Below are positions 8,601 to 19,476 of a DNA stretch of 19,476 nucleotides, piece by piece (positions within the stretch are counted from its first letter, which is position 1; each line of letters starts with the position of its first letter). The notes under the pieces are model-generated. The model was not told where the DNA came from, did not search any database, and saw only the letters and a program-made list of their open reading frames with translations. The stretch lies in UHGV virus genome UHGV-0127163, one strand, 5' to 3'. Source of the DNA: a virus. Position numbers and translations under genes: made by a program.

Positions 8601-9686
8601 TTACAGACACTTGACTACTGTTGAAACATCAGATTCTAGTGCTTCAATTTGTGCTCTATTAGCTTGGGTCGCCATACCATAGATAGTGTAACTCTTATGC
8701 TGCAGCCTACTTAAAGGGCATCCCTCATGGTTTATTATTGCTGCAAGAGTATTACCATCTTTGACATTTTGAACTCTCTCGAAAGTAGCCACATTTGTGA
8801 ACAGATGAGGATGTGTATTTAACAGGTCATCCGTGATTCTTTTGATCTCTTCTGCATGTGATTTGAATGCTTTTGCTGCATCACTTTCATTAGTTCTTGA
8901 GCGGTTTTGTACGAAAAGGTGTAGTTCAGGTAGTTCGATAAGGTTTTGCTTTGCTTCTTTGTTGAAATCTAAGAACATTTCATCTTGTTCTGACTTGTCA
9001 ATAGACACTCCATAAATAAGTTTAACAAGGTTTTTTATTCCGCGAATTGATGCAGCATCGGCAGTGCAAGGGATAATTATTCTATTTGCCGCGACTACTC
9101 CCAATTCTGTGTAGCTGGCAAAACTTGGATTACAATCAATAAAAAATGTTTTTGCTCTGTCAGAAATGTTTTTATCGGCTTCAAAAGATGCTATTAGATC
9201 TACCAGCAAAGATCGGCTTTTCTTCCATGCTTCTTTTACTGGGGATGAGCCAATGTGAGATATTAAGCGTGAACAGATATCAAGATCGACATCACCAGGA
9301 AGAATATATAAGTTCTCTGGCATTTTTGCATTAACATCATGGGCTCGTACAAAGTAAGAAGATTCATTTCCTAAACGAGACAAAGGAGATTTGCTAAAAC
9401 GCTCCTTGATATAACCTGCGATTGTAACATTTCTGTCTCGCAATTTATTTAGATTTTCTTCCCCGGTACCATTGCCACCAAGAATAATTTCTGAAACGTT
9501 TGATTGAGGGCATGAGTCAATAACCACAACATCTTGATCCGGATGAGATATAGCAAACTCAACGGCAAGATTATATGTAAGAAAAGTTTTTCCTACACCA
9601 CCTTTGTTGTTCCATACTAAATATTTTGTATTGGTGGAAATCATATCTGCTACCCCATCTGTCGCTTCAGTACGTTCATTAATCAT
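8601..9686 (-). CDS. ParA/MinD-superfamily P-loop ATPase with ~100 aa C-terminal extension; orphan gene in the cI-to-OL interval
   Basis: Deviant Walker A NNKGGVGKT, Walker A'-like VVVIDSCPQ, Walker B-like FFIDCNPSF in translation. AGGA SD 7 nt before ATG 9686. Visibly AT-richer than flanking phage DNA; preceded by a 234 bp AT-rich spacer and followed by its own terminator. Confidence 0.75.
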   Translation of the reverse strand: MINERTEATDGVADMISTNTKYLVWNNKGGVGKTFLTYNLAVEFAISHPDQDVVVIDSCPQSNVSEIILGGNGTGEENLNKLRDRNVTIAGYIKERFSKSPLSRLGNESSYFVRAHDVNAKMPENLYILPGDVDLDICSRLISHIGSSPVKEAWKKSRSLLVDLIASFEADKNISDRAKTFFIDCNPSFASYTELGVVAANRIIIPCTADAASIRGIKNLVKLIYGVSIDKSEQDEMFLDFNKEAKQNLIELPELHLFVQNRSRTNESDAAKAFKSHAEEIKRITDDLLNTHPHLFTNVATFERVQNVKDGNTLAAIINHEGCPLSRLQHKSYTIYGMATQANRAQIEALESDVSTVVKCL

Positions 9687-9920: not shown

Positions 9921-10661
9921 TTAAAGTCGATTATATTTAATCGACTCATGAATCAGTGCCTTACCCATAACATAAAGCTGATCTTGCGACTTCTCATCAA
10001 TGTACCATTTCTCATAGGCGGGGTTATCCGAAAGAACAGCTAGTTTGTTGCCTTGCATTTGTAGACGTTTAACATGGAAAGTCTTACCGTAAACGAAAGA
10101 GTAAACTCCATCAGTCTGGAAGTGGCGAACGGAAATGTCGACAAACAATCGATCCCCGGAAACAAGAGTTGGGGACATACTATCTCCATTTACCGTCATA
10201 ACTTTTATATCATTCTGAGAACGGTTTCCGAAAAGAGAACGGGCATGTTCAGTTGTGAACTCAATGGCGTAGAGCACATCAACATAGTCTGAAAGCATAT
10301 AGGTCCCAGGTCCTGCGCTAACGCTAAGATCCAAAACTTCTATCCTGTATACATCGGGCTTTGTTGGATTGGGGATGCTTGCCATTTCCTTACATTCCTC
10401 TCTATCTCCAACACCATATTCTAGATATGAAGCTGATACTCCAAGAGCCAACGCAAGTTTACTCATGACAGAGACACGTGGCTTCGCTGCGCCGATTGTG
10501 TATCGACGAGCCATTTCATATGTAACGCCCACAAGACTTTTGAGTTGAGTGACAGAGATTCCTTTGATTGTCATCAATTCGTTTAGTCTCTTGGCGAAAT
10601 CTGGATACTTCTGTTCTTCTACCATAGGTAGAAGATTACTCACATCGCACGCGCTAGTCAT
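9921..10661 (-). CDS. cI: CI-like prophage repressor (XRE-type HTH + LexA/S24 peptidase autocleavage domain)
   Basis: HTH segment …ISVTQLKSLVGVTYEMARRY…; C-terminal S24 signature …VNGDSMSPTL… and downstream Lys (…FHVKRLQ…). Divergent from the cro-like gene. ATG 10661 has no SD and abuts operator repeats, consistent with a leaderless pRM-type transcript; ORF-track start at 10682 is TTG. Confidence 0.8.
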   Translation of the reverse strand: MTSACDVSNLLPMVEEQKYPDFAKRLNELMTIKGISVTQLKSLVGVTYEMARRYTIGAAKPRVSVMSKLALALGVSASYLEYGVGDREECKEMASIPNPTKPDVYRIEVLDLSVSAGPGTYMLSDYVDVLYAIEFTTEHARSLFGNRSQNDIKVMTVNGDSMSPTLVSGDRLFVDISVRHFQTDGVYSFVYGKTFHVKRLQMQGNKLAVLSDNPAYEKWYIDEKSQDQLYVMGKALIHESIKYNRL

Positions 10662-10971: not shown

Positions 10972-11608
10972 AAAGTTAGCGGTTCAACTGCGTAAACGTA
11001 ACCACAGAAACGAGGAATTAACCGTGGGTAAAGAACCTGAATGGAAAGTTGATAAGCAACCAGCATGGCTGGTGGCAGCAATACGAAGAACGATTGCTGA
11101 TTTACCTCATGGCTATGAGGAAGCAGCGGAAATTCTTGGTTTGTATAAATCTGATGATATCACCCCAGCGAAAGATCAATTGCATAACAGACTGCGTAGC
11201 GGTGGGGATCAAATTTTTCCACTTGAGTGGGCCATGGTTTTACAGGATGCCAGTGGTACCAGGCATGTAACGGATGCGATAGCGCGTCGTAGTAATGGGG
11301 GGTTTGTGCCGCTGGTGGACATTGATGACATTGACAATGGTGACATTAATCAGCGGCTGATGGAGTCAATAGAATGGATTGGCAAGCATTCCCAGTACTT
11401 ACGCAAGGCAACTGCTGATGGAGTTATTGACCAGGCTGAGCGTGAGCAAATCGAAGAGAACAGCTACCAAGTAATGGCGAAGTGGCAGGAGCATTTAACA
11501 CTGTTATTTCGTGTTTTTTGTGCGCCGGAAAAGAGTAACGCCCGCGAGTGTGCAGCTCCGGGCGTCGTGGCGTCGATTGCTTCTGGTTGTGGAGAAACTA
11601 ACGCATGA
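10946..11608 (+). CDS. Hypothetical early-right protein in the cII position (possibly YdaT-like); start uncertain
   Basis: ORF overlapping the 3' end of cro in another frame; candidate starts ATG 10946 (no SD) or GTG 11024 (GAGGA SD). Family not securely recognised. Confidence 0.45.
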   Translation: MMDYLSAIKKLAVQLRKRNHRNEELTVGKEPEWKVDKQPAWLVAAIRRTIADLPHGYEEAAEILGLYKSDDITPAKDQLHNRLRSGGDQIFPLEWAMVLQDASGTRHVTDAIARRSNGGFVPLVDIDDIDNGDINQRLMESIEWIGKHSQYLRKATADGVIDQAEREQIEENSYQVMAKWQEHLTLLFRVFCAPEKSNARECAAPGVVASIASGCGETNA

Positions 11609-11933
11609 ATAGTTTAACGGCAAATAACCGTTTGTCGCAACAGCTGGTGGTCAGCGTCGCTGAACACCTGTTGTTACGGCATGAATGCAGATTACCAAAT
11701 CACCTGGCTGTAAGTAACCACAGAGAACTTTACCTGACTGTGGGGGGCGAGTTGTGCAGGAACTTAACCGCTGGTTTCGTGACGGAAGAGGGCTTTATGT
11801 CCATGTTATTCGTTGGGAGCCAGAAACACAGCGCGTTATCTATCTTCGCAAAGACTACCCGCATGAGTGCTTTAGTCCTTTGTGGAAATTCAGGCGTGAT
11901 TTTGTTGAGTGTGAAGGACCACCAGCATATTGA
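11605..11933 (+). pseudogene. Small gene split between frame 1 (11605-~11748) and frame 3 (~11748-11933) at a G6 run: frameshift mutation, homopolymer sequencing error, or -1 frameshift site
   Basis: ATG 11605 is coupled to the upstream stop (ATGA). After the G6 run (11742-11747) only frame 3 reads as protein-like (RVVQELNRWFRDGRGLYVHVIRWEPETQRVIYLRKDYPHECFSPLWKFRRDFVECEGPPAY, stop 11931-11933); frame 1 turns Ser/Ala/Gly-rich and low-complexity. Frame 3 is closed upstream by TAA 11715-11717. Confidence 0.35.
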
Positions 11934-12021
11934 TTCTGCAATTCCGGGACGTTACACTGCTCAGGCACCTTATAAAGCGGGTGCCGGGGGTCGCAGCCCG
12001 GAATTGTCAACGGCGATATAT

Positions 12022-12041
12022 GACGCGCCAGCGTCTTTTTT
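12022..12041 (+). terminator. Candidate weak intrinsic terminator (tR1-like) upstream of rha
   Basis: GACGC-gcca-GCGTC followed by TTTTTT (12036-12041); lies inside the computed 382-aa ORF, ~90 nt after the frame-3 stop. Confidence 0.4.
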
Positions 12042-12207
12042 ATCGTCCGCGCTCACGCACGCCAGAATTATGGTGGGCTGGGCAGGGGAGCCGAAAGGCT
12101 CGCCGGTCTCCGTTGACGCCGGTACTGCGAACCCTGTTCAGTCTGCCACCAGTGAGTTTCGCAGCTCCGGTGGTGGAAGTTTTCCACAGTCAACGGAGGC
12201 TGCCATC

Positions 12208-12753
12208 ATGGCTACGATCCCAACCCTCACTCAACCTGAAATTGCCATCGTTGATGGTCAGGCTGTTACTTCATCCCTGGCTGTTGCCAACTTCTTCTCC
12301 AAACGTCATGACGATGTACTGAAAAAGATCCGCACGCTTGAATGCTCTGCATCATTCACTTCCCGCAATTTTTCGGTGAGTGATTACACCGATTGCACAG
12401 GCCGCAAACTACCTTGCTATCAAATAACCCGCGACGGCTTTGCGTTTCTTGCTATGGGTTTCACGGGTAAACGTGCTGCCCAGTTCAAAGAGGCATACAT
12501 CAATGCCTTTAACCAGATGGAGAAACAGCTTTCAAATCCCTCTGTACTGAGCGACGTTGCACATAACGCCAGCGTTCTCTATTCCTACATTTCATCAATT
12601 CATCAGGTCTGGCTGCAGCAGCTTTATCCCATGTTGGCAAAAGCCGAATCCCCGCTGGCTGTAAGTCTGTATGACCGCATCAACGACGCGGCGCTACTGG
12701 CCAGTCTCATAAATTTGTCGCTGAACCCTTCAGAGGTAAGGGGGCGCAAATGA
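12208..12753 (+). CDS. rha: Rha-family phage regulatory protein
   Basis: From ATG 12208 (GGAGG SD at 12195-12199) the product begins MATIPTLTQPEIAIVDGQAVTSSLAVANFFSKRHDDVLKKIRTL…, matching the N-terminal Rha domain (…KRHDxVLrxI…). The 382-aa ORF-track version is judged an artefactual upstream extension. Confidence 0.65.
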   Translation: MATIPTLTQPEIAIVDGQAVTSSLAVANFFSKRHDDVLKKIRTLECSASFTSRNFSVSDYTDCTGRKLPCYQITRDGFAFLAMGFTGKRAAQFKEAYINAFNQMEKQLSNPSVLSDVAHNASVLYSYISSIHQVWLQQLYPMLAKAESPLAVSLYDRINDAALLASLINLSLNPSEVRGRK

Positions 12754-14741: not shown

Positions 14742-15394
14742 TGAGTAATAAATATTGCCAGGCGCTGGTGGAACTACGGAACAAACCAGCCCATGAACTG
14801 AAGGAAGTGGGCGATCAGTGGCGCACGCCGGACAACATTTTCTGGGGAATTAACACCCTGTTTGGCCCGTTTGTTCTGGATCTGTTTACTGACGGTGATA
14901 ACGCCAAATGTGCCGCGTATTACACGGCGGAAGACAACGCGCTGGCACATGACTGGTCAGAACGTCTTGCGGAGCTTAAAGGTGCTGCCTTTGGTAATCC
15001 CCCGTACAGCCGCGCCAGTCAGCATGAGGGACAATACATCACCGGCATGCGTTACATCATGAAGCATGCCAGTGCCATGCGTGATAAAGGCGGGCGCTAT
15101 GTTTTCCTGATCAAAGCGGCCACCAGCGAAGTGTGGTGGCCGGAAGATGCAGATCATATTGCTTTTATTCGCGGGCGTATTGGTTTTGAACTGCCAGCCT
15201 GGTTTATCCCGAAAGACGAAAAGCAGGTGCCAACAGGTGCTTTCTTCGCTGGTGCTATTGCTGTTTTCGACAAGACCTGGAAGGGAGCGGCAATCAGCTA
15301 CATCGGGCGCGATGAACTTGAGGCATGTGGTGAGGCCTTTCTGGCGCAGGTTCGCCAGCAGGCGGAAAAACTGGTCAGGGAGATGGCGGCATGA
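14741..15394 (+). CDS. Phage DNA N6-adenine methyltransferase (Dam-like)
   Basis: Motifs DQWRTP near the N-terminus and NPPY (…FGNPPYSR…); ATG 14741 overlaps upstream stop (TAATG). Confidence 0.7.
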   Translation: MSNKYCQALVELRNKPAHELKEVGDQWRTPDNIFWGINTLFGPFVLDLFTDGDNAKCAAYYTAEDNALAHDWSERLAELKGAAFGNPPYSRASQHEGQYITGMRYIMKHASAMRDKGGRYVFLIKAATSEVWWPEDADHIAFIRGRIGFELPAWFIPKDEKQVPTGAFFAGAIAVFDKTWKGAAISYIGRDELEACGEAFLAQVRQQAEKLVREMAA

Positions 15395-15717
15395 CGACAT
15401 TAACTCAATGCCAGCAGCAGGTGCTGGATATGCTGATTTCTTATCAGAAAGAACGTGGCTTCCCGCCAACCAATCAGGAGGTGGCAACCATGCTGGGATA
15501 CCGTTCGGTGAATGCAGCGGTGGAGCATCTTCGAGCACTGGAGAAAAAAGGTGTCATCACGATAAAGCGTGGCGTGGCCCGGGGTATCACTCTTCATACC
15601 GCGGTGAAGGACGACGACAGCGAGGCGGTCGGGATTATCCGCGCCCTGCTTGCCGGTGAGGCAAACGCCAGGCTGCGTGCAGCCCACTGGTTACATGAGA
15701 GGGGCCTGAAAGTATGA
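15391..15717 (+). CDS. LexA N-terminal DNA-binding-domain paralog lacking the S24 peptidase domain
   Basis: MTTLTQCQQQVLDMLISYQKERGFPPTNQEVATMLGYRSVNAAVEHLRALEKKGVITI… closely parallels the E. coli LexA N-terminus ([58 protein letters not shown]…, recalled). Only 108 aa; the C-terminal ~40 aa has no Ser/Lys protease motifs. Confidence 0.75.
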   Translation: MTTLTQCQQQVLDMLISYQKERGFPPTNQEVATMLGYRSVNAAVEHLRALEKKGVITIKRGVARGITLHTAVKDDDSEAVGIIRALLAGEANARLRAAHWLHERGLKV

Positions 15718-16109
15718 AGCTAATACTGCCTTTTCCGCCCAGCGTGAACACGTACTGGCGACACCCTAACAAAGGGGCGTTTGCTGGTAAGAGCCTGATA
15801 AGCGCGGCGGGGCGAAAATTCCAGAGCGCGGCGTGTGCAGCAATAGTTGAGCAGTTACGTCGTCTGCCGAAACCAACGTCGGCACCTGCTTCAGTGGAGA
15901 TCGTGTTGTTTCCTCCGGATAACCGGATCCGCGATCTGGACAACTATAACAAGGCGCTGTTTGACGCCCTGACCCACGCGGGTGTGTGGGAAGACGACAG
16001 CCAGGTGAAAAGAATGCTGGTGGAGTGGGGACCGGTTATCCCGGAAGGGAAGGTCGAGATCACTATCAGTAAGTACGAAAAAGCGAGTTGCAAATTAGCA
16101 ACTCGGTAA
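15714..16109 (+). CDS. rusA: RusA-family Holliday junction resolvase
   Basis: …LPFPPSVNTYWRH… and …RDLDNYNKALFDALTHAGVWEDDSQV… match RusA conserved blocks; ATGA coupling to upstream gene. Confidence 0.8.
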   Translation: MKLILPFPPSVNTYWRHPNKGAFAGKSLISAAGRKFQSAACAAIVEQLRRLPKPTSAPASVEIVLFPPDNRIRDLDNYNKALFDALTHAGVWEDDSQVKRMLVEWGPVIPEGKVEITISKYEKASCKLATR

Positions 16110-16154
16110 CGGAATTGAGCAACACCCTAAATTTGGGTATTACCTCGTTAAAGA

Positions 16155-16174
16155 TACTGTATTTATGAACAGTG
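16155..16174. promoter_or_regulatory. LexA box (SOS box) upstream of the antirepressor gene
   Basis: TACTGTATTTATGAACAGTG fits CTGT-N8-ACAG / TACTGTATATATATACAGTA; sits in the RusA-antirepressor intergenic region, overlapping plausible promoter hexamers, ~100 bp before ATG 16272. Confidence 0.6.
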
Positions 16175-16271
16175 TATCCTTGATAACTATTAAAAATCGC
16201 AGTAAGTTCATCCTGCATCAACGAAAAGGGAGTGCAGTCCCGCTCGTGGATAAAAATTTGTGGAGAAACCA

Positions 16272-17087
16272 ATGAATCAGTTGCTTGTAATTGATGGCGT
16301 TTCTGTGCGCCAGTACTTCGAATCTAACTACTGTCTTAACGACCTTCAGAAAGCTGCTCTTCTTGCCGCTGGTGAGAATCGCTCCTCCCGTTCGCTGGAA
16401 GTTCACGAGTTTATGCGTCGTCCTGAAACGAAGGCTCTTGTGGAATTATTGGAAGAAGAAACTACGGGAGATTCCCGTAGTATTCCTGTCATCACCATTC
16501 AGGGGCGCAATGGTGGGACGTATGTCTGTAAAGAGCTGGTCTATGCATATGCAATGTGGATCAGCCCGGCATTCAGCTTAAAAGTGATACGTACTTTTGA
16601 TGCGCTTCATAATTCATCACCAGAAGAAACCACATCCGACAAAATTAAATCCGGGGTCATTCTGCTTGAATCAGCAGCAAAGACTCTAAATCTGTCAAAC
16701 TCCTCGAAACTTGGTGCATACCAGAAATTATCAAAGGTAGCTGGTCTTCCTGAACTTATGCCGATCTATGCCATTGATGCACCTGCTGATGCGCCAGATG
16801 GTTCAAGCCGCCCTACGCTGTCGCTGAGTGCACTGCTGAAGCAGTATGGTATCCGCCTGACGGCTAATCAGGCATATCACCAGATGGTGAAACTGGGGAT
16901 CGTCGAGCAGCGCGAACGATACAGCCGTACCGCGATTAACAACATCAAAAAATTCTGGTCGCTGACAGCGAAAGGCTGCATGTTCGGCAAGAACATCACC
17001 AGTCCTGCAAATCCGCGCGAGACGCAGCCGCATTTCTTCGAATCCCGATTCCCTGAGCTGTTAAAGCTGCTCGATACCGTTCACTGA
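16272..17087 (+). CDS. KilA-N domain protein, putative antirepressor
   Basis: N-terminal KilA-N/APSES-like block (…VRQYFESNYCLNDLQKAA…GTYVCKELVYAYAMWISPAF…); GGAGAA SD before ATG 16272; LexA box upstream. Confidence 0.6.
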   Translation: MNQLLVIDGVSVRQYFESNYCLNDLQKAALLAAGENRSSRSLEVHEFMRRPETKALVELLEEETTGDSRSIPVITIQGRNGGTYVCKELVYAYAMWISPAFSLKVIRTFDALHNSSPEETTSDKIKSGVILLESAAKTLNLSNSSKLGAYQKLSKVAGLPELMPIYAIDAPADAPDGSSRPTLSLSALLKQYGIRLTANQAYHQMVKLGIVEQRERYSRTAINNIKKFWSLTAKGCMFGKNITSPANPRETQPHFFESRFPELLKLLDTVH

Positions 17088-17102
17088 TGGGAGGCGTGGA
17101 GC

Positions 17103-17618
17103 ATGAGAATTACACCACCCCATCTGCAGCCAGTTTTATCCAGGGTTAAACGTTTTGTTGAACGAATGCCGGAAGGCGCAACACTGACCCAGATATCACA
17201 GAAAGTGCAGGCGTACAGTCTACTGAATAAAAGGGATAAGGAGATACTCATTGGCATTATCCGCGACAGTGGACTTCTGGTCGTTGCGAATGATGGAAGA
17301 ACTACAACGTTACATCATCCTAAATTTGGACATCAGGCAGTAAATAGTGAAATACCAGTAAAAACAGAGGAACCCGTTGTGATTAAAAAGACCGTTACTC
17401 CGGATGAATTACGCAGGCATGCTGAGGAGCTGATCAGGGCTGCGGAAGAAGCAGAGAAGAAATTTAATGATCGTGCGGAAATTAAAAAGCAACTGGATCC
17501 TCTGAAACTGGAAATCCTCCAGGCGTATGGAATGGCAAGTCGTAAATTTGATGAGTTTGTTGATGCTATGGCGGATATGGGGAAAGCGGTACAGAAACTG
17601 AAACAGATTGTGCTGTGA
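17103..17618 (+). CDS. Hypothetical phage protein (171 aa)
   Basis: GGAGG SD before ATG 17103; no domain recognised. Confidence 0.55.
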   Translation: MRITPPHLQPVLSRVKRFVERMPEGATLTQISQKVQAYSLLNKRDKEILIGIIRDSGLLVVANDGRTTTLHHPKFGHQAVNSEIPVKTEEPVVIKKTVTPDELRRHAEELIRAAEEAEKKFNDRAEIKKQLDPLKLEILQAYGMASRKFDEFVDAMADMGKAVQKLKQIVL

Positions 17619-17627
17619 GGTTCTACG

Positions 17628-18617
17628 TTGAGAGCACTACTGACCCCTGAAATTGCCCCGCGTATGGGGATCGTATTGTTCAGGCCAGGTTCAGAGCTGA
17701 TGCCCCTGTTTATGCAGGGGCGTGTCCTGCTGGAGCCTGAGCCGGAGCGTTATTCATCTTTCGCCAGTGGTGCCGTTCCGGCGGCATCACAACCGCTGGC
17801 GGATGATCCTGCCGTTCGGGCCGTGTTCCGCAATGAGGCGGTGATCCGTCGTGCTGGTGGCGTGGAATGCCTTGAGAGCTGGTTACTTCGTGAAAAGGGC
17901 TGTCAGTGGCCTCATTCCGACTGGCACAGCGAGAACATGACCACAATGCGGCACGCGCCAGGCGCAATCCGTCTGTGCTGGCACTGTGACAATCTCCTCC
18001 GTGACCAGTTCACGGAACGGCTGGAATCAATGGCAACGGATAACTGTGCCCGCTGGGTGTTGTCTGTTGTGCGCCGTGATCTTGGTTTTGATGACAGTCA
18101 CGTTGTGACAATGCCGGAACTGTGCTGGTGGCTGGTTCGTAATGACCTGGCGGATGCCTTACCGGAAAGTGCAGCCCGTAAGGTACTGAGATTACCGAAG
18201 ACGGTTGTGCCGTCTGTCACCCGGGAAAGTGACCTTGTGCCTTCGGTTCCCGCCACCAGTATTATCCGGGATAAAGCGAAAAAGGTGCTGGCGCTGAAAG
18301 TGGATCCGGAGTCGCCGGAGTCTTTTATGTTACGCCCAAAACGTCGCCGCTGGGTTAATGAAAAGTACACGCGCTGGGTTAAGACGCAGCCGTGCGCATG
18401 TTGTGGAAAACCTGCTGATGATCCCCACCACCTGATAGGTCACGGTCAGGGCGGAATGGGTACAAAAGCGCATGACCTCTTTGTGTTGCCTTTGTGCAGA
18501 AAGCATCACGACGAGCTGCATGCGGATACCGTGGCATTTGAAGAGAAGTATGGCTCCCAGCTGGAGCTGATATTTCGTTTTATCGATCGCGCGCTGGCGA
18601 TTGGTGTGCTGTCCTGA
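17628..18617 (+). CDS. DUF968-like phage protein with C-terminal Cys/His cluster
   Basis: C-terminus …CACCGKPADDPHHLIGHGQGGMGTKAHDLFVLPLCRKHHDELH… (Zn-binding-like); TTG 17628 preceded by GAGG SD; located just upstream of Q. Confidence 0.55.
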   Translation: MRALLTPEIAPRMGIVLFRPGSELMPLFMQGRVLLEPEPERYSSFASGAVPAASQPLADDPAVRAVFRNEAVIRRAGGVECLESWLLREKGCQWPHSDWHSENMTTMRHAPGAIRLCWHCDNLLRDQFTERLESMATDNCARWVLSVVRRDLGFDDSHVVTMPELCWWLVRNDLADALPESAARKVLRLPKTVVPSVTRESDLVPSVPATSIIRDKAKKVLALKVDPESPESFMLRPKRRRWVNEKYTRWVKTQPCACCGKPADDPHHLIGHGQGGMGTKAHDLFVLPLCRKHHDELHADTVAFEEKYGSQLELIFRFIDRALAIGVLS

Positions 18618-18634
18618 TTTTGTGGAGAAAGTTG

Positions 18635-19027
18635 ATGCGTGATATTCAGATGGTTCTCGAACGCTGGGGGGCATGGGCGGCAAGTGGTAACGCCGGGGTG
18701 GACTATTCTCCGATAGCTGCTGGATTTAAAGGCCTTTTACCATCCACCGCTAAACCTCGCCCGGCCTGCAGCGATGATGACGGCCTTATCATCGAAAACT
18801 GCCTTACGCGCCTGAAGAAGAAAAAACCGGACGAGTATTCGCTGCTGGTAGCTCATTATCTGCTGCGCATATCAAAAAGGCAGATTGCCAGAACAAGAAA
18901 GAAGAGCGAAAAGGCAATACGAATTGAGATGCAGATTGCTGAAGGATTTATTGACGGATGTCTGTCGATGCTGGGTGTAAGGCTGGAGATGGACGACTGG
19001 CTGCCCAAAAAAGTAAAAAATGATTAG
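18635..19027 (+). CDS. Q: Late-gene antiterminator Q-like protein
   Basis: 130 aa from ATG 18635 (GGAGA SD); N-terminus MRDIQMVLERWGAWAA… resembles Q proteins of the phage-82/933W group as recalled; immediately followed by a promoter-proximal terminator (tR' arrangement). Confidence 0.6.
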   Translation: MRDIQMVLERWGAWAASGNAGVDYSPIAAGFKGLLPSTAKPRPACSDDDGLIIENCLTRLKKKKPDEYSLLVAHYLLRISKRQIARTRKKSEKAIRIEMQIAEGFIDGCLSMLGVRLEMDDWLPKKVKND

Positions 19028-19087
19028 CGCGGTCCGCAAAAAGTATGTCAGTATGTTAAGAGTGGTTACTACGCCACACAGCTTAAA

Positions 19088-19109
19088 CCCGCCGCCTGGC
19101 GGGTTTTTT
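19088..19109 (+). terminator. tR'-like Rho-independent terminator downstream of Q
   Basis: CCCGCC-gcct-GGCGGG followed by TTTTTT (19104-19109). Confidence 0.7.
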
Positions 19110-19228
19110 ATGACTGAAATCGCATCAGTACAGTAAACGTGCTGGTGGTGAATACCTGTCTTTCAGCTTGCTGGCTTTTTAGACAAGAGTTATTGGTATG
19201 TCACGTTAACCGGAAAAGGGAAAAAGAC

Positions 19229-19426
19229 ATGCTAAAACAGCAGGATATGACAGAAACCGCCAGAGTGGTGTTTAATGAATTAAGCGTCACCTACCCGGCG
19301 ACAGTCGGGGAGATTGCGCAGAATACTTACCTTTCACGCGAACGCTGCCAGTTAATACTGACCCAGCTGGTTATGGCGGGTCTGGCAGACTATCAGTTCG
19401 GTTGTTACAGACGCCTTCCGCAGTGA
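19229..19426 (+). CDS. Small hypothetical protein (65 aa), possible winged-helix fold, downstream of tR'
   Basis: ATG 19229 (MLKQQDMTETARVVFNELSVTYPATVGEIAQNTYLSRERCQLILTQLVMAGLADYQFGCYRRLPQ); the ORF-track start at 19139 is less likely. Weak SD. Followed by its own terminator. Confidence 0.45.
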   Translation: MLKQQDMTETARVVFNELSVTYPATVGEIAQNTYLSRERCQLILTQLVMAGLADYQFGCYRRLPQ

Positions 19427-19436
19427 AGGCTTTTTT
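19413..19436 (+). terminator. Rho-independent terminator after the small post-Q gene
   Basis: GCCTTC-cgcagt-GAAGGC followed by TTTTTT (19431-19436); stem overlaps the stop codon. Confidence 0.6.
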
Positions 19437-19476
19437 ATTTGTGGTAAATGGGCGGCTGGTGGGTGTGGTGGTTGTT

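Follow-up and report, generated by a model that had tools for sequence, protein, structure and literature searches.

The locus described here raises the question of whether a KilA-N gene carried by an SfIV-like lambdoid prophage of E. coli is wired directly to the SOS response of its host through LexA and, if so, whether its product is an antirepressor, as the original prediction held. The gene (kilA-N, 16272-17087, + strand) encodes a 271-aa protein and lies within the window, i.e. the whole 19,476-nt stretch of viral DNA that was analyzed. It is separated from rusA (15714-16109, encoding RusA) by a 162-bp spacer, which contains a predicted LexA operator or SOS box, TACTGTATTTATGAACAGTG (16155-16174, no strand assigned), found by exact match and by position weight matrix (PWM) score. 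The box is identical to the consensus TACTGTATATATATACAGTA at 16 of 20 positions, with both the CTGT and ACAG cores intact. With a PWM of 27 Escherichia coli LexA sites, which themselves score 12.8-26.5 bits (median 20.1), the box reaches 21.7 bits, and the runner-up site in the window 8.8 bits. In 2000 simulations of the window under a first-order Markov model, no site attained this score. The heterology-type index of the box is 4.93 (1.25-9.56 for the 27 reference sites, median 5.75), so that it beats the median reference site on both measures. The exact pattern CTGT-N8-ACAG is present twice in the window, where 0.23 copies are expected; the second copy (11708), within a Rha/Ash gene, has a score of 7.3 bits and an index of 15.4 and was taken as a chance occurrence. 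Judged by these scores, the predicted operator is a high-quality, binding-grade LexA site, and the earlier claim of a near-consensus SOS box before the KilA-N gene is borne out. The box adjoins a conserved predicted promoter. A literature search returned no report that pairs KilA-N with an SOS box or describes such an arrangement.

That promoter, which we name P_kil (16180-16208, + strand), was revealed by the kilA-N leaders of nine genera as a conserved σ70-type sequence, TTGATA-N17-TAAGTT, with a predicted -35 hexamer at 16180-16185 and a -10 hexamer at 16203-16208. The footprint, defined by an alignment of 10 leaders, spans Escherichia, Kluyvera, Raoultella, Rahnella, Serratia, Buttiauxella, and Cedecea. 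In this alignment, the columns at T16203, A16204, and T16208 (-10 positions 1, 2, and 6) are invariant, TT16180-16181, within the TTG of the -35 hexamer, is near-invariant, and the 17-bp spacing is kept though the letters of the spacer diverge. A consensus promoter scan of 15900-16400 returned no promoter, P_kil being overlooked because it matches only 8 of 12 consensus positions. Two alternatives read by hand, TTGGGT-N16-TACTGT and TTACCT-N18-TATGAA, both overlapping the box, are weak and unconserved and were replaced by the footprinted promoter. Relative to the predicted transcription start near 16215, the box would fall roughly between -60 and -41. Its 3' edge lies 5 bp ahead of the -35 hexamer, i.e. 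adjacent to it but not overlapping. LexA sites classically overlap the -35, the -10, or the +1; a box centered near -50 is not in such a position, which makes the efficiency of repression uncertain. Translation would start from a Shine-Dalgarno sequence GGAG (16262-16265, + strand) 6 nt ahead of the ATG, and GTGGAG is kept in all aligned leaders.

At the other end of the spacer, just to its left and within the 3' end of rusA, lies an 8-bp palindrome, CGAGTTGC-N6-GCAACTCG (16084-16105, no strand assigned), with a T-run on the - strand only and no U-tract on the + strand. Its position is analogous to that of the terminator-like palindromes found ahead of the LexA boxes of Gifsy prophages (PMC3121763), apart from this missing + strand U-tract. 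No acceptable - strand promoter was found for a LexA-controlled small RNA that would run leftward to the terminator-like hairpin of the - strand (16105-16084), and this possibility was rejected. Small ORFs within the spacer, e.g. MNLLRFLIVIKDTLFINTVSLTR (23 aa, - strand), were likewise set aside, having no usable Shine-Dalgarno sequence and too little hydrophobicity for a type I toxin.

LexA-like boxes are not confined to this prophage. Sites of at least 12 bits occur in 6 of 30 Enterobacterales kilA-N leaders, compared with 5 of 1174 control windows (Mann-Whitney p = 2e-4), and in Raoultella, Erwinia, Edwardsiella, and Serratia LexA-grade boxes accompany this promoter. The Raoultella box (14.5 bits) has the identical distal position, 5 bp before the -35 hexamer, and those of Erwinia, Edwardsiella, and Serratia overlap the -10. 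In Kluyvera, the homologous box has decayed. The closest relatives outside E. coli (Citrobacter, Kluyvera, and Cedecea, 74-80% aa identity) have kept promoter-like hexamers with no good box, suggesting that LexA control is dispensable or else that the promoter is weak or under some other control. Within E. coli, the box-bearing spacer is present in 186 of 5426 genomes, or 186 of the ∼2280 that have this gene family. The allele is thus found in about 3% of complete genomes, including O104:H4, O157:H7, and O111 strains and the ExPEC strain S88. The common E. coli alleles have kilA-N 16-19 bp past rusA, and most kilA-N orthologs are box-free, plain nin-operon genes. The box is identical across five allele variants in which the neighboring bases differ; the SfIV and AZ187 variants finish in ...CAGTA, which is nearer the consensus. 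Box-bearing E. coli alleles diverge too little to give a true footprint of the box. Because a conserved promoter abuts the box and LexA-grade boxes recur across genera, LexA control of kilA-N is probably real, albeit a minority state.

The opposite reading, that the box has no function, being a relic or a by-product of recombination, and that kilA-N is expressed by pR read-through only, as in SfV-type phages, could appeal to the rarity of the spacer among E. coli genomes with the gene family, to the decayed boxes in the nearest foreign relatives, and to the atypical position upstream of the -35. We nonetheless regard it as very improbable indeed, considering that a site of this score lies beyond chance expectation, that the box is invariant amid varying flanks, and that other genera have LexA-grade boxes around the same promoter.

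Another candidate ligand of the box is encoded nearby. As originally predicted, the second gene upstream of kilA-N (15391-15717, + strand) encodes a truncated LexA paralog; its 108 aa match only the LexA N-terminal domain (PF01726, E = 2.9e-19), and LexA structures in the PDB match it at 1e-15. Conceivably, the box would chiefly serve as the operator for this non-cleavable phage protein, which pR would express in lytic growth and which would then re-silence P_kil together with host SOS genes. The paralog is 43% identical to E. coli LexA over residues 1-87, and its recognition helix is largely LexA-like (SVNAAVEHL versus SPNAAEEHL), with S39, N41, A42, E45, and H46 kept and E44 to V as the sole change. 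Its position as the second gene before kilA-N is shared by Escherichia, Citrobacter, Kluyvera, Cedecea, Raoultella, and Buttiauxella. However, it lacks the LexA dimerization domain, its DNA specificity is putative, and a search across loci for its co-occurrence with LexA-like boxes found none, since it is just as present in alleles with neither box nor spacer and no copy of it lies in the 2.5 kb preceding the box-bearing loci of Serratia, Erwinia, Pantoea, and Rosenbergiella. This role for the paralog is therefore very unlikely in our estimation.

The leader of the predicted P_kil transcript contains a stem-loop, GGGA-GUGCAG-UCCC (16228-16241, + strand), with an outer imperfect stem that stretches to 16217-16251 in the MFE fold. 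TGCAG-loop hairpins are present in 18 of 31 Enterobacterales kilA-N leaders versus 87 of 3966 control windows (p = 1e-21). They have 16 different stems, and in a selected set of leaders there are changes on both sides at all five stem pairs. A covariance model of the hairpin, which is too short for significant E-values (best 0.025) and was used solely to locate best matches, placed 18 of its 22 best matches in 405 kb of scanned DNA inside kilA-N leaders. No Rfam family matches the leader hairpin, and a search of 15000-19476 against Rfam at permissive E-values returned nothing in the spacer and only sub-threshold small RNA-like matches near pR'. Comparative evidence thus identifies the conserved, covarying UGCAG-loop hairpin as a predicted RNA element that is unannotated and new here.

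Downstream, kilA-N is followed on the + strand by orf171 (17103-17618), a DUF968/HNH gene (17628-18617), and the gene for the Q antiterminator (18620-19027). The four genes are packed tightly, with gaps of 2-15 bp (orf171 starts 15 bp past kilA-N), and no strong + strand intrinsic terminator was found in 16272-19027. Compared with a moron cassette, kilA-N therefore has a promoter supported by the leader alignment but no terminator behind it. The order KilA-N-DUF968-Q is kept in Enterobacterales, within a RusA-KilA-N-DUF968(HNH)-Q block. P_kil transcripts would probably run into orf171, the DUF968/HNH gene, and Q. Such co-transcription invites the reading that the LexA-gated promoter mainly feeds Q rather than KilA-N, as an SOS shortcut to the late antiterminator that would bypass the cI to N to Q cascade and prime or speed late transcription and lysis. 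The short gaps, the absence of a convincing + strand intrinsic terminator between the genes, and the conserved gene order would all suit it. In relatives that have promoter-like hexamers and no LexA box, however, unregulated read-through to Q would be lethal, implying that the promoter is weak or that transcription halts before Q, and we consider this reading decidedly unlikely. It is also a tentative and improbable proposition that the spacer forms a compact SOS-responsive unit of a kind so far undescribed in lambdoid phages, in which a LexA-gated nin promoter reaching Q would link LexA directly to late antitermination, independently of cI, and would be combined with the UGCAG-loop hairpin as a leader RNA operator by which KilA-N or DUF968 controls its own mRNA.

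What the KilA-N protein itself might do was approached through its domains. The KilA-N/APSES domain family (Pfam PF04383) was reportedly described by Iyer, Koonin, and Aravind in 2002, and the protein belongs to it by a significant profile match (E = 1.3e-15, residues 10-114) and by an APSES-like fold. It consists of an N-terminal KilA-N/APSES-like DNA-binding domain, the fold of which matches the APSES DNA-binding domain of Mbp1, a helical linker, and a C-terminal α/β domain (about residues 182-271) with no family match. The KilA-N fold is related to nucleic acid-binding modules. Searches of Pfam, PHROGs, and NCBIfam detected KilA-N alone, with no ANT/KilAC, Bro-N, AntA, P22_AR, or DinI/Tum domain; Pfam searches with C-terminal fragments at E ≤ 10 gave no match, including to ANT/KilAC, and the PDB contains no sequence relative of the protein. 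PADLOC gave a single domain-level match, to the candidate PDC-S22, which was judged uninformative. The KilA-N/phrog_129 family is very common, with a member in some 40% of E. coli genomes.

The cI gene (9921-10625, - strand, start taken at MVEEQ) encodes a protein with HTH_3 and Peptidase_S24 domains that is 84% identical to a 234-aa Citrobacter homolog. Its translation carries every hallmark of S24 autocleavage, i.e. Ala-Gly (LSVSAGPG), GDSMSP, and VKRL, in agreement with the original prediction of an S24 autocleavage domain. Four other box-bearing prophages likewise have repressors of the S24 type. Moreover, KilA-N proteins at least 99% identical in aa sequence are found beside four unrelated S24 repressors, which are only 16-39% identical, and this argues against repressor specificity. 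With a cleavable cI and a binding-grade box at the kilA-N promoter, the element plausibly senses SOS twice; of the two proposed routes to induction, it is the action of the second as an antirepressor that finds no support.

An antirepressor role, whether it offers a second route to induction by acting on the cognate cI or cross-induces a co-resident prophage through the repressor of that prophage, is unlikely in our estimation, the cross-induction variant being one for which the evidence points neither way, although precedents exist. A box and promoter that follow a palindrome within the nin region reproduce the place and layout of the Gifsy dinI-antirepressor operons, and Fels-1 FsoA is an antirepressor able to act solely on a foreign repressor (PMC3121763). 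KilA-N is part of the domain-shuffling "Bro network" to which the Ant domains of P22 and P1 also belong (PMC10111431), and phi24B has a cleavable cI yet uses an Ant protein for efficient induction (PMC3064807). A DNA-binding fold is compatible with antirepression through protein-protein contacts. On the other hand, KilA-N shows no homology to proven antirepressor domains, its N-terminal fold is DNA-binding, and the identical protein accompanies four unrelated repressors. Since every partner repressor examined is cleavable, no antirepressor would be needed. Most orthologs are not LexA-controlled and lie in the pR operon, where the repressor would already be gone when they are made.

The arrangement had been likened to the usual architecture of Tum/Ant-type systems, but the known LexA-controlled antirepressors (186 Tum, N15 AntC, and Gifsy GfoA, GfhA, and GftA) are small, are unrelated to KilA-N by domain search, and serve non-cleavable repressors (PMC3121763), and most orthologs of the gene studied here are box-free. 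A LexA box before the gene and outside the immunity region, as for Tum, AntC, and GfoA, is present; a repressor devoid of an autocleavage domain is not, cI having S24, and neither domain nor PDB searches found kinship to a proven antirepressor. The dinI-antirepressor operons of Gifsy-1, -2, and -3 in Salmonella (gfoA, gftA, and gfhA; Lemire et al. 2011, PMC3121763) likewise have a LexA box and their own promoter, located in the nin region some 1-2 kb past the replication genes with a palindrome ahead, and they too, from a position outside the immunity region, wire a prophage gene directly to the SOS response. Their products are small (about half of the 146-aa Tum) and bind non-cleavable repressors (PMC3121763), whereas here a 271-aa KilA-N protein with no similarity by domain search is combined with an S24-cleavable repressor and a box upstream of the -35. 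phi24B/P22 Ant and Listeria AriS belong to the same Bro network and likewise come from phages with cleavable repressors, but their activities reside in ANT/KilAC or AntA domains, none of which the KilA-N protein has; Ant modulates induction, and the KilAC domain of AriS modulates the SOS response itself (PMC3064807, PMC9043618). P1 KilA has a KilA-C/ANT domain and is under C1 control, in contrast to the different, unclassified C-terminal domain and the LexA box found here. Coliphage 186 Tum, N15 AntC, and SPC32H Ant are also encoded by host LexA-repressed phage genes acting at induction, all three being LexA-repressed antirepressors. These phages rely on an antirepressor because their repressors do not self-cleave, and no sequence or domain relation to KilA-N was found. 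Passages of PMC3121763 and PMC8044961 cite AntC and SPC32H Ant in this role. The map position just upstream of Q is equivalent to that of the HK022 roi gene. Roi is a nin-region DNA-binding protein encoded between P and Q, with an HTH and a KilA-C-like domain, and we know of no report that it is under LexA control. Naming such genes "antirepressor" by domain neighborhood alone is unsafe.

The explanation that we favor, with moderate confidence, is that the rusA-kilA-N spacer holds a LexA-gated P_kil and that KilA-N is an ordinary delayed-early nin function, not a repressor-specific antirepressor. The spacer would thus bear its own σ70 promoter, and a high-affinity LexA operator would end 5 bp ahead of the -35. 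By occupying this site (about -60 to -41) in the lysogen, LexA would hold P_kil off, possibly by occluding the α-CTD/UP-element region and crowding the -35. Upon DNA damage, RecA* would trigger LexA self-cleavage and P_kil would fire independently of cI cleavage, probably before it and at lower damage, to judge from the established kinetics of LexA versus λ cI. The transcript would carry the 5' UGCAG-loop hairpin, encode the KilA-N/APSES-type DNA-binding protein, and probably continue into orf171, the DUF968 HNH gene, and Q. In most relatives, KilA-N would be made by pR read-through only. We see the protein as a putative DNA-binding regulator or an accessory factor tied to the DUF968 nuclease and Q block, and the LexA box would be a lineage-specific input added to an otherwise generic gene.

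Direct LexA control of prophage genes is already known for 186, N15, and Gifsy, where it stands in place of repressor cleavage. Here, a predicted LexA-gated promoter lies within an early operon, before a block that ends in Q, in a phage whose own cI is cleavable. Besides flagging an unannotated conserved RNA hairpin, this arrangement gives a handle on the function of the KilA-N/phrog_129 family. If P_kil is active, an SOS response too weak to cleave cI would already lead SfIV-like lysogens to express KilA-N and perhaps the HNH protein and Q, with possible effects on induction thresholds, lysis timing, or DNA-damage physiology.

The window covers the early region of a lambdoid E. coli prophage, whose nin segment shares 98% identity with Shigella phage SfIV and Escherichia phage PhiR49_1. 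The cI gene (9921-10625, - strand) encodes HTH_3 and Peptidase_S24 domains, and its translation contains all three hallmarks of RecA-stimulated self-cleavage, i.e. an Ala-Gly pair (LSVSAGPG), GDSMSP, and VKRL, which bears out the autocleavage domain previously proposed for this repressor. On the + strand, a cro-like gene (10732), a cII-like gene, and a gene for a 382-aa Rha/Ash fusion (11605-12753) precede the replication genes and genes for a PerC-like protein and a Dam-like methylase. These are followed by genes for a LexA DNA-binding domain alone (108 aa, 15391-15717), RusA (15714-16109), and, after a 162-bp spacer, a 271-aa KilA-N protein (16272-17087), and then by orf171, a DUF968/HNH gene, and Q (18620-19027). 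An orphan ParA/AAA_31-type ATPase gene (8601-9686, - strand) adjoins the immunity region. Gifsy-1 has a ParA-like gene, STM14_3218, in a comparable place, and SOS-dependent activation of the RtcR RNA-repair operon requires it (PMC9879122).

The candidate LexA operator upstream of kilA-N (TACTGTATTTATGAACAGTG, 16155-16174) matches 16 of 20 consensus positions, and both its CTGT and ACAG cores are intact. As assessed with a position weight matrix of 27 E. coli LexA sites, it scores 21.7 bits (reference-site median, 20.1), whereas the runner-up 20-mer across the 19.5-kb window scores 8.8 bits. In 2000 first-order Markov simulations of the window, no site scored as high as 21.7 bits, and the heterology-type index (HI) of the box is 4.93 (1.25-9.56 in the reference set). 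Every element of the original prediction, i.e. this near-consensus SOS box, the KilA-N gene, the S24-containing cI, and the LexA paralog, was thus found where it had been placed. The other exact CTGT-N8-ACAG (11708) is intragenic, scores 7.3 bits, and was treated as a chance occurrence.

We fetched 80 loci, one per species, encoding relatives of the N-terminal 173 residues of the KilA-N protein, together with contigs encoding the closest non-E. coli proteins (Citrobacter, Kluyvera, and Cedecea, 74-80% identity). Many Enterobacterales have a rusA-kilA-N spacer (leader) of 90-140 bp. Ten such leaders, when aligned, are invariant at T16203, A16204, and T16208, which in a -10 hexamer (TAAGTT in the window and TAATGT, TAATCT, TACGTT, or TATTTT in others) occupy positions 1, 2, and 6. 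TT at 16180-81, starting a TTGnnn -35 element (TTGATA in the window), is nearly so, and a constant 17 bp separates the two hexamers, with no conservation of the intervening sequence. We take these conserved hexamers as the phylogenetic footprint of a putative sigma-70 promoter, P_kil (16180-16208), with a predicted start near 16215. A simple promoter scanner missed P_kil because only 8 of 12 consensus positions match. The 3' end of the box lies 5 bp upstream of the -35 element, so that it spans roughly -60 to -41.

LexA-like sites recur around this promoter. Raoultella has a LexA-grade box (CGCTGGATGTTTGTTCAGTG, 14.5 bits, HI 8.3) at the identical position, and a decayed homolog (GGGTGTATGCATGAACAGTG) is present at one Kluyvera locus while the box is lost at another. 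The LexA-like boxes of Serratia (15.1 bits), Erwinia (16.3 bits), and Edwardsiella (18.9 bits) instead overlap the -10/start region, and weaker remnants lie inside the -35/-10 spacer in Buttiauxella and Cedecea. Boxes in the comparison loci map to L008 2409-2428, L029 2426-2445, L030 337-356, and L021 (Raoultella) 2344-2363. Sites of ≥12 bits occur in 6 of 30 Enterobacterales leaders but in only 5 of 1174 control windows drawn from the same loci, and leader maxima exceed control maxima (Mann-Whitney p = 2e-4). Box positions that differ by genus, either 5' of the -35 or on the -10, suggest operator turnover around P_kil. Such turnover at one conserved promoter is expected from maintained selection for LexA input and speaks for a functional box in E. 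coli. Against this, the nearest foreign relatives have no good box, and the centre of the E. coli box, near -50, is not at the classical overlapping position.

The box-bearing arrangement is a minority allele. The 162-bp spacer is present in 186 of 5426 complete E. coli genomes, every time between rusA and kilA-N, including O104:H4 C227-11, S88, and O157:H7 and O111:H8 strains; 2282 of these genomes carry some member of the kilA-N gene family. In SfV, SfII, Stx2a_1447, and the most populous E. coli/Salmonella alleles, kilA-N starts 16-19 bp past the rusA stop, which leaves no room for a promoter or box. Across five aligned spacer variants the box is unchanged, two of them ending ...CAGTA, nearer the consensus, and a few flanking bases differ, but divergence is too low for this invariance alone to prove constraint. 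Alleles of O157:H7, O111:H8, and some other E. coli have an 11-bp deletion (CTCGTGGATAA; L004 3119-3184 versus window 16242-16252) 3' of the box, which spares box, promoter, and core hairpin but takes the 3' arm of an outer leader stem.

This stem belongs to a stem-loop, GGGA-GUGCAG-UCCC (core 16228-16241, outer 16217-16251, + strand), ∼30 nt 5' of the start codon. Its (G/U)UGCAG loop, in which UGCAG is invariant, is shared among loci whose stems are quite different: GGCGG/CCGCC in SfV-type alleles, where the hairpin overlaps the rusA stop, GUCGG/CCGAC, UUCAU/AUGAG with G-U pairs, and AAGCCCGC/GCGGGCUU in Janthinobacterium. Long-spacer and 19-bp-spacer alleles alike have the hairpin, which maps in the comparison loci to L001 2283-2304, L007 2446-2467, L009 2406-2427 and 2442-2463, L021 2413-2434, L057 2408-2429, and L087 5956-5977. 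Some leaders have two copies. Among Enterobacterales leaders, 18 of 31 have a hairpin of this kind, with 16 distinct stems between them; the frequency in control windows is 87 of 3966 (odds ratio 62, p 1e-21). An alignment of 11 sequences shows changes on both sides at all five pairs; as these were picked for having the stem, the covariation is informative but the pairing percentage is not. The 22 best matches to a small covariance model in 405 kb include 18 in kilA-N leaders. The G-U pairs make the structure strand-specific, hence RNA. In Morganellaceae relatives the hairpin at this site has another, UACGG-type loop, and an Rfam search returned no family matching the leader hairpin. Our guess is that KilA-N or DUF968 might use the leader hairpin as an operator, or that it might stabilise the 5' end. 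A palindrome at the rusA 3' end (16084-16105) scores as an intrinsic terminator for the - strand only, and a search for a leftward promoter able to use it found none.

The truncated LexA paralog predicted two genes upstream is indeed a DNA-binding domain alone, 43% identical to residues 1-87 of E. coli LexA, with an almost intact recognition helix (SVNAAVEHL versus SPNAAEEHL). It has no catalytic/dimerisation domain, and so no protease, and retains an Ala-Gly-containing stretch. It could possibly act as an uncleavable mimic binding SOS-like boxes and made during lytic growth. It is widespread in lambdoid nin regions, equally present in box-less alleles, and absent near several box-bearing loci; it is not a dedicated partner of the 16155-16174 operator.

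The original prediction also cast the KilA-N protein as an SOS-dependent antirepressor, and here the analysis points the other way. Its sole Pfam match is KilA-N (E 1.3e-15, residues 10-114), and the whole protein is assigned to phrog_129, "transcriptional regulator". An NCBIfam search gave no match, a PDB search found no sequence relative, and its C-terminal 157 and 92 residues match no Pfam family even at E ≤ 10, hence no ANT/KilAC, AntA, Bro-N, P22_AR, or DinI/Tum domain. In an AlphaFold2 model (39 homologs, mean pLDDT 78), a long helical linker joins two alpha/beta domains, one N-terminal and one C-terminal. Alleles 99-100% identical to this one, in SfIV and O104:H4/S88, accompany repressors only 16 and 39% identical to the window cI, and a prophage of O157 FRIK944 has a fourth repressor type. 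An S24 domain is present in every one of these repressors, as it is in those of the Citrobacter, Kluyvera, and Cedecea relatives. The order RusA-KilA-N-DUF968(HNH)-Q is kept from Escherichia to Proteus, Morganella, and Gilliamella, and KilA-N looks like a generic nin-region function; in the common alleles it can be produced only once repression has ended. The antirepressors known to be under LexA control are small and unrelated, and are directed at non-cleavable repressors (PMC3121763), whereas here a 271-aa protein accompanies an S24 cI. In the nearest supportive precedents, phi24B Ant improves the induction of a phage whose cI is cleavable (PMC3064807), and the KilAC domain of Listeria AriS damps SOS (PMC9043618), but these activities reside in ANT-type domains that the KilA-N protein does not have. 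Although protein-protein action is compatible with a DNA-binding fold and, by the FsoA precedent, an antirepressor may act on foreign repressors only, we consider an antirepressor role unlikely. The Rha part of the Rha/Ash fusion matches several PHROG "anti-repressor" families and, by annotation, this protein would be at least as good a candidate.

In the lysogen, LexA would keep P_kil off, presumably because LexA bound near -50 blocks alpha-CTD/UP contacts and crowds the -35. Upon DNA damage, LexA cleavage would turn kilA-N on independently of cI cleavage, and probably earlier, since LexA is cleaved faster than lambda cI. Genes 3' of kilA-N are separated by 2-15 bp and we found no convincing + strand intrinsic terminator between kilA-N and Q, so that the P_kil transcript may run through orf171 and DUF968 into Q, giving LexA a direct line to late-gene antitermination. 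We rate this lower, because box-less relatives keep the promoter and read-through to Q without regulation should be lethal. LexA control of kilA-N itself is the most likely mechanism; the original observation is confirmed, but its interpretation finds only partial support. kilA-N and DUF968 are adjacent, without an intervening ORF, in most relatives; here orf171 (17103-17618, 171 aa, phrog_2539) is inserted between them, and a related ORF is at the same place in Raoultella (L021) and E. coli STEC2018-607 (L096). Sub-threshold matches (16-27 bits versus gathering thresholds of 50-54) to the enterobacterial prophage sRNAs isrK and STnc370 lie 3' of Q (19036-19150), followed by a clean + strand intrinsic terminator (GCCTTC-N6-GAAGGC + T7, 19413-19430). 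Together they are presumably the pR'/tR' unit, the target of Q.

A literature search, mostly outside subscription journals, found no publication on a LexA box before kilA-N genes, on P_kil, or on the hairpin. As a principle, the direct control by LexA of prophage genes that lie outside the immunity region is already known. What is new in the arrangement predicted here is the class of gene, its coexistence with a cleavable cI, its location within the early operon, 5' of Q, and an operator lying 5' of the -35.
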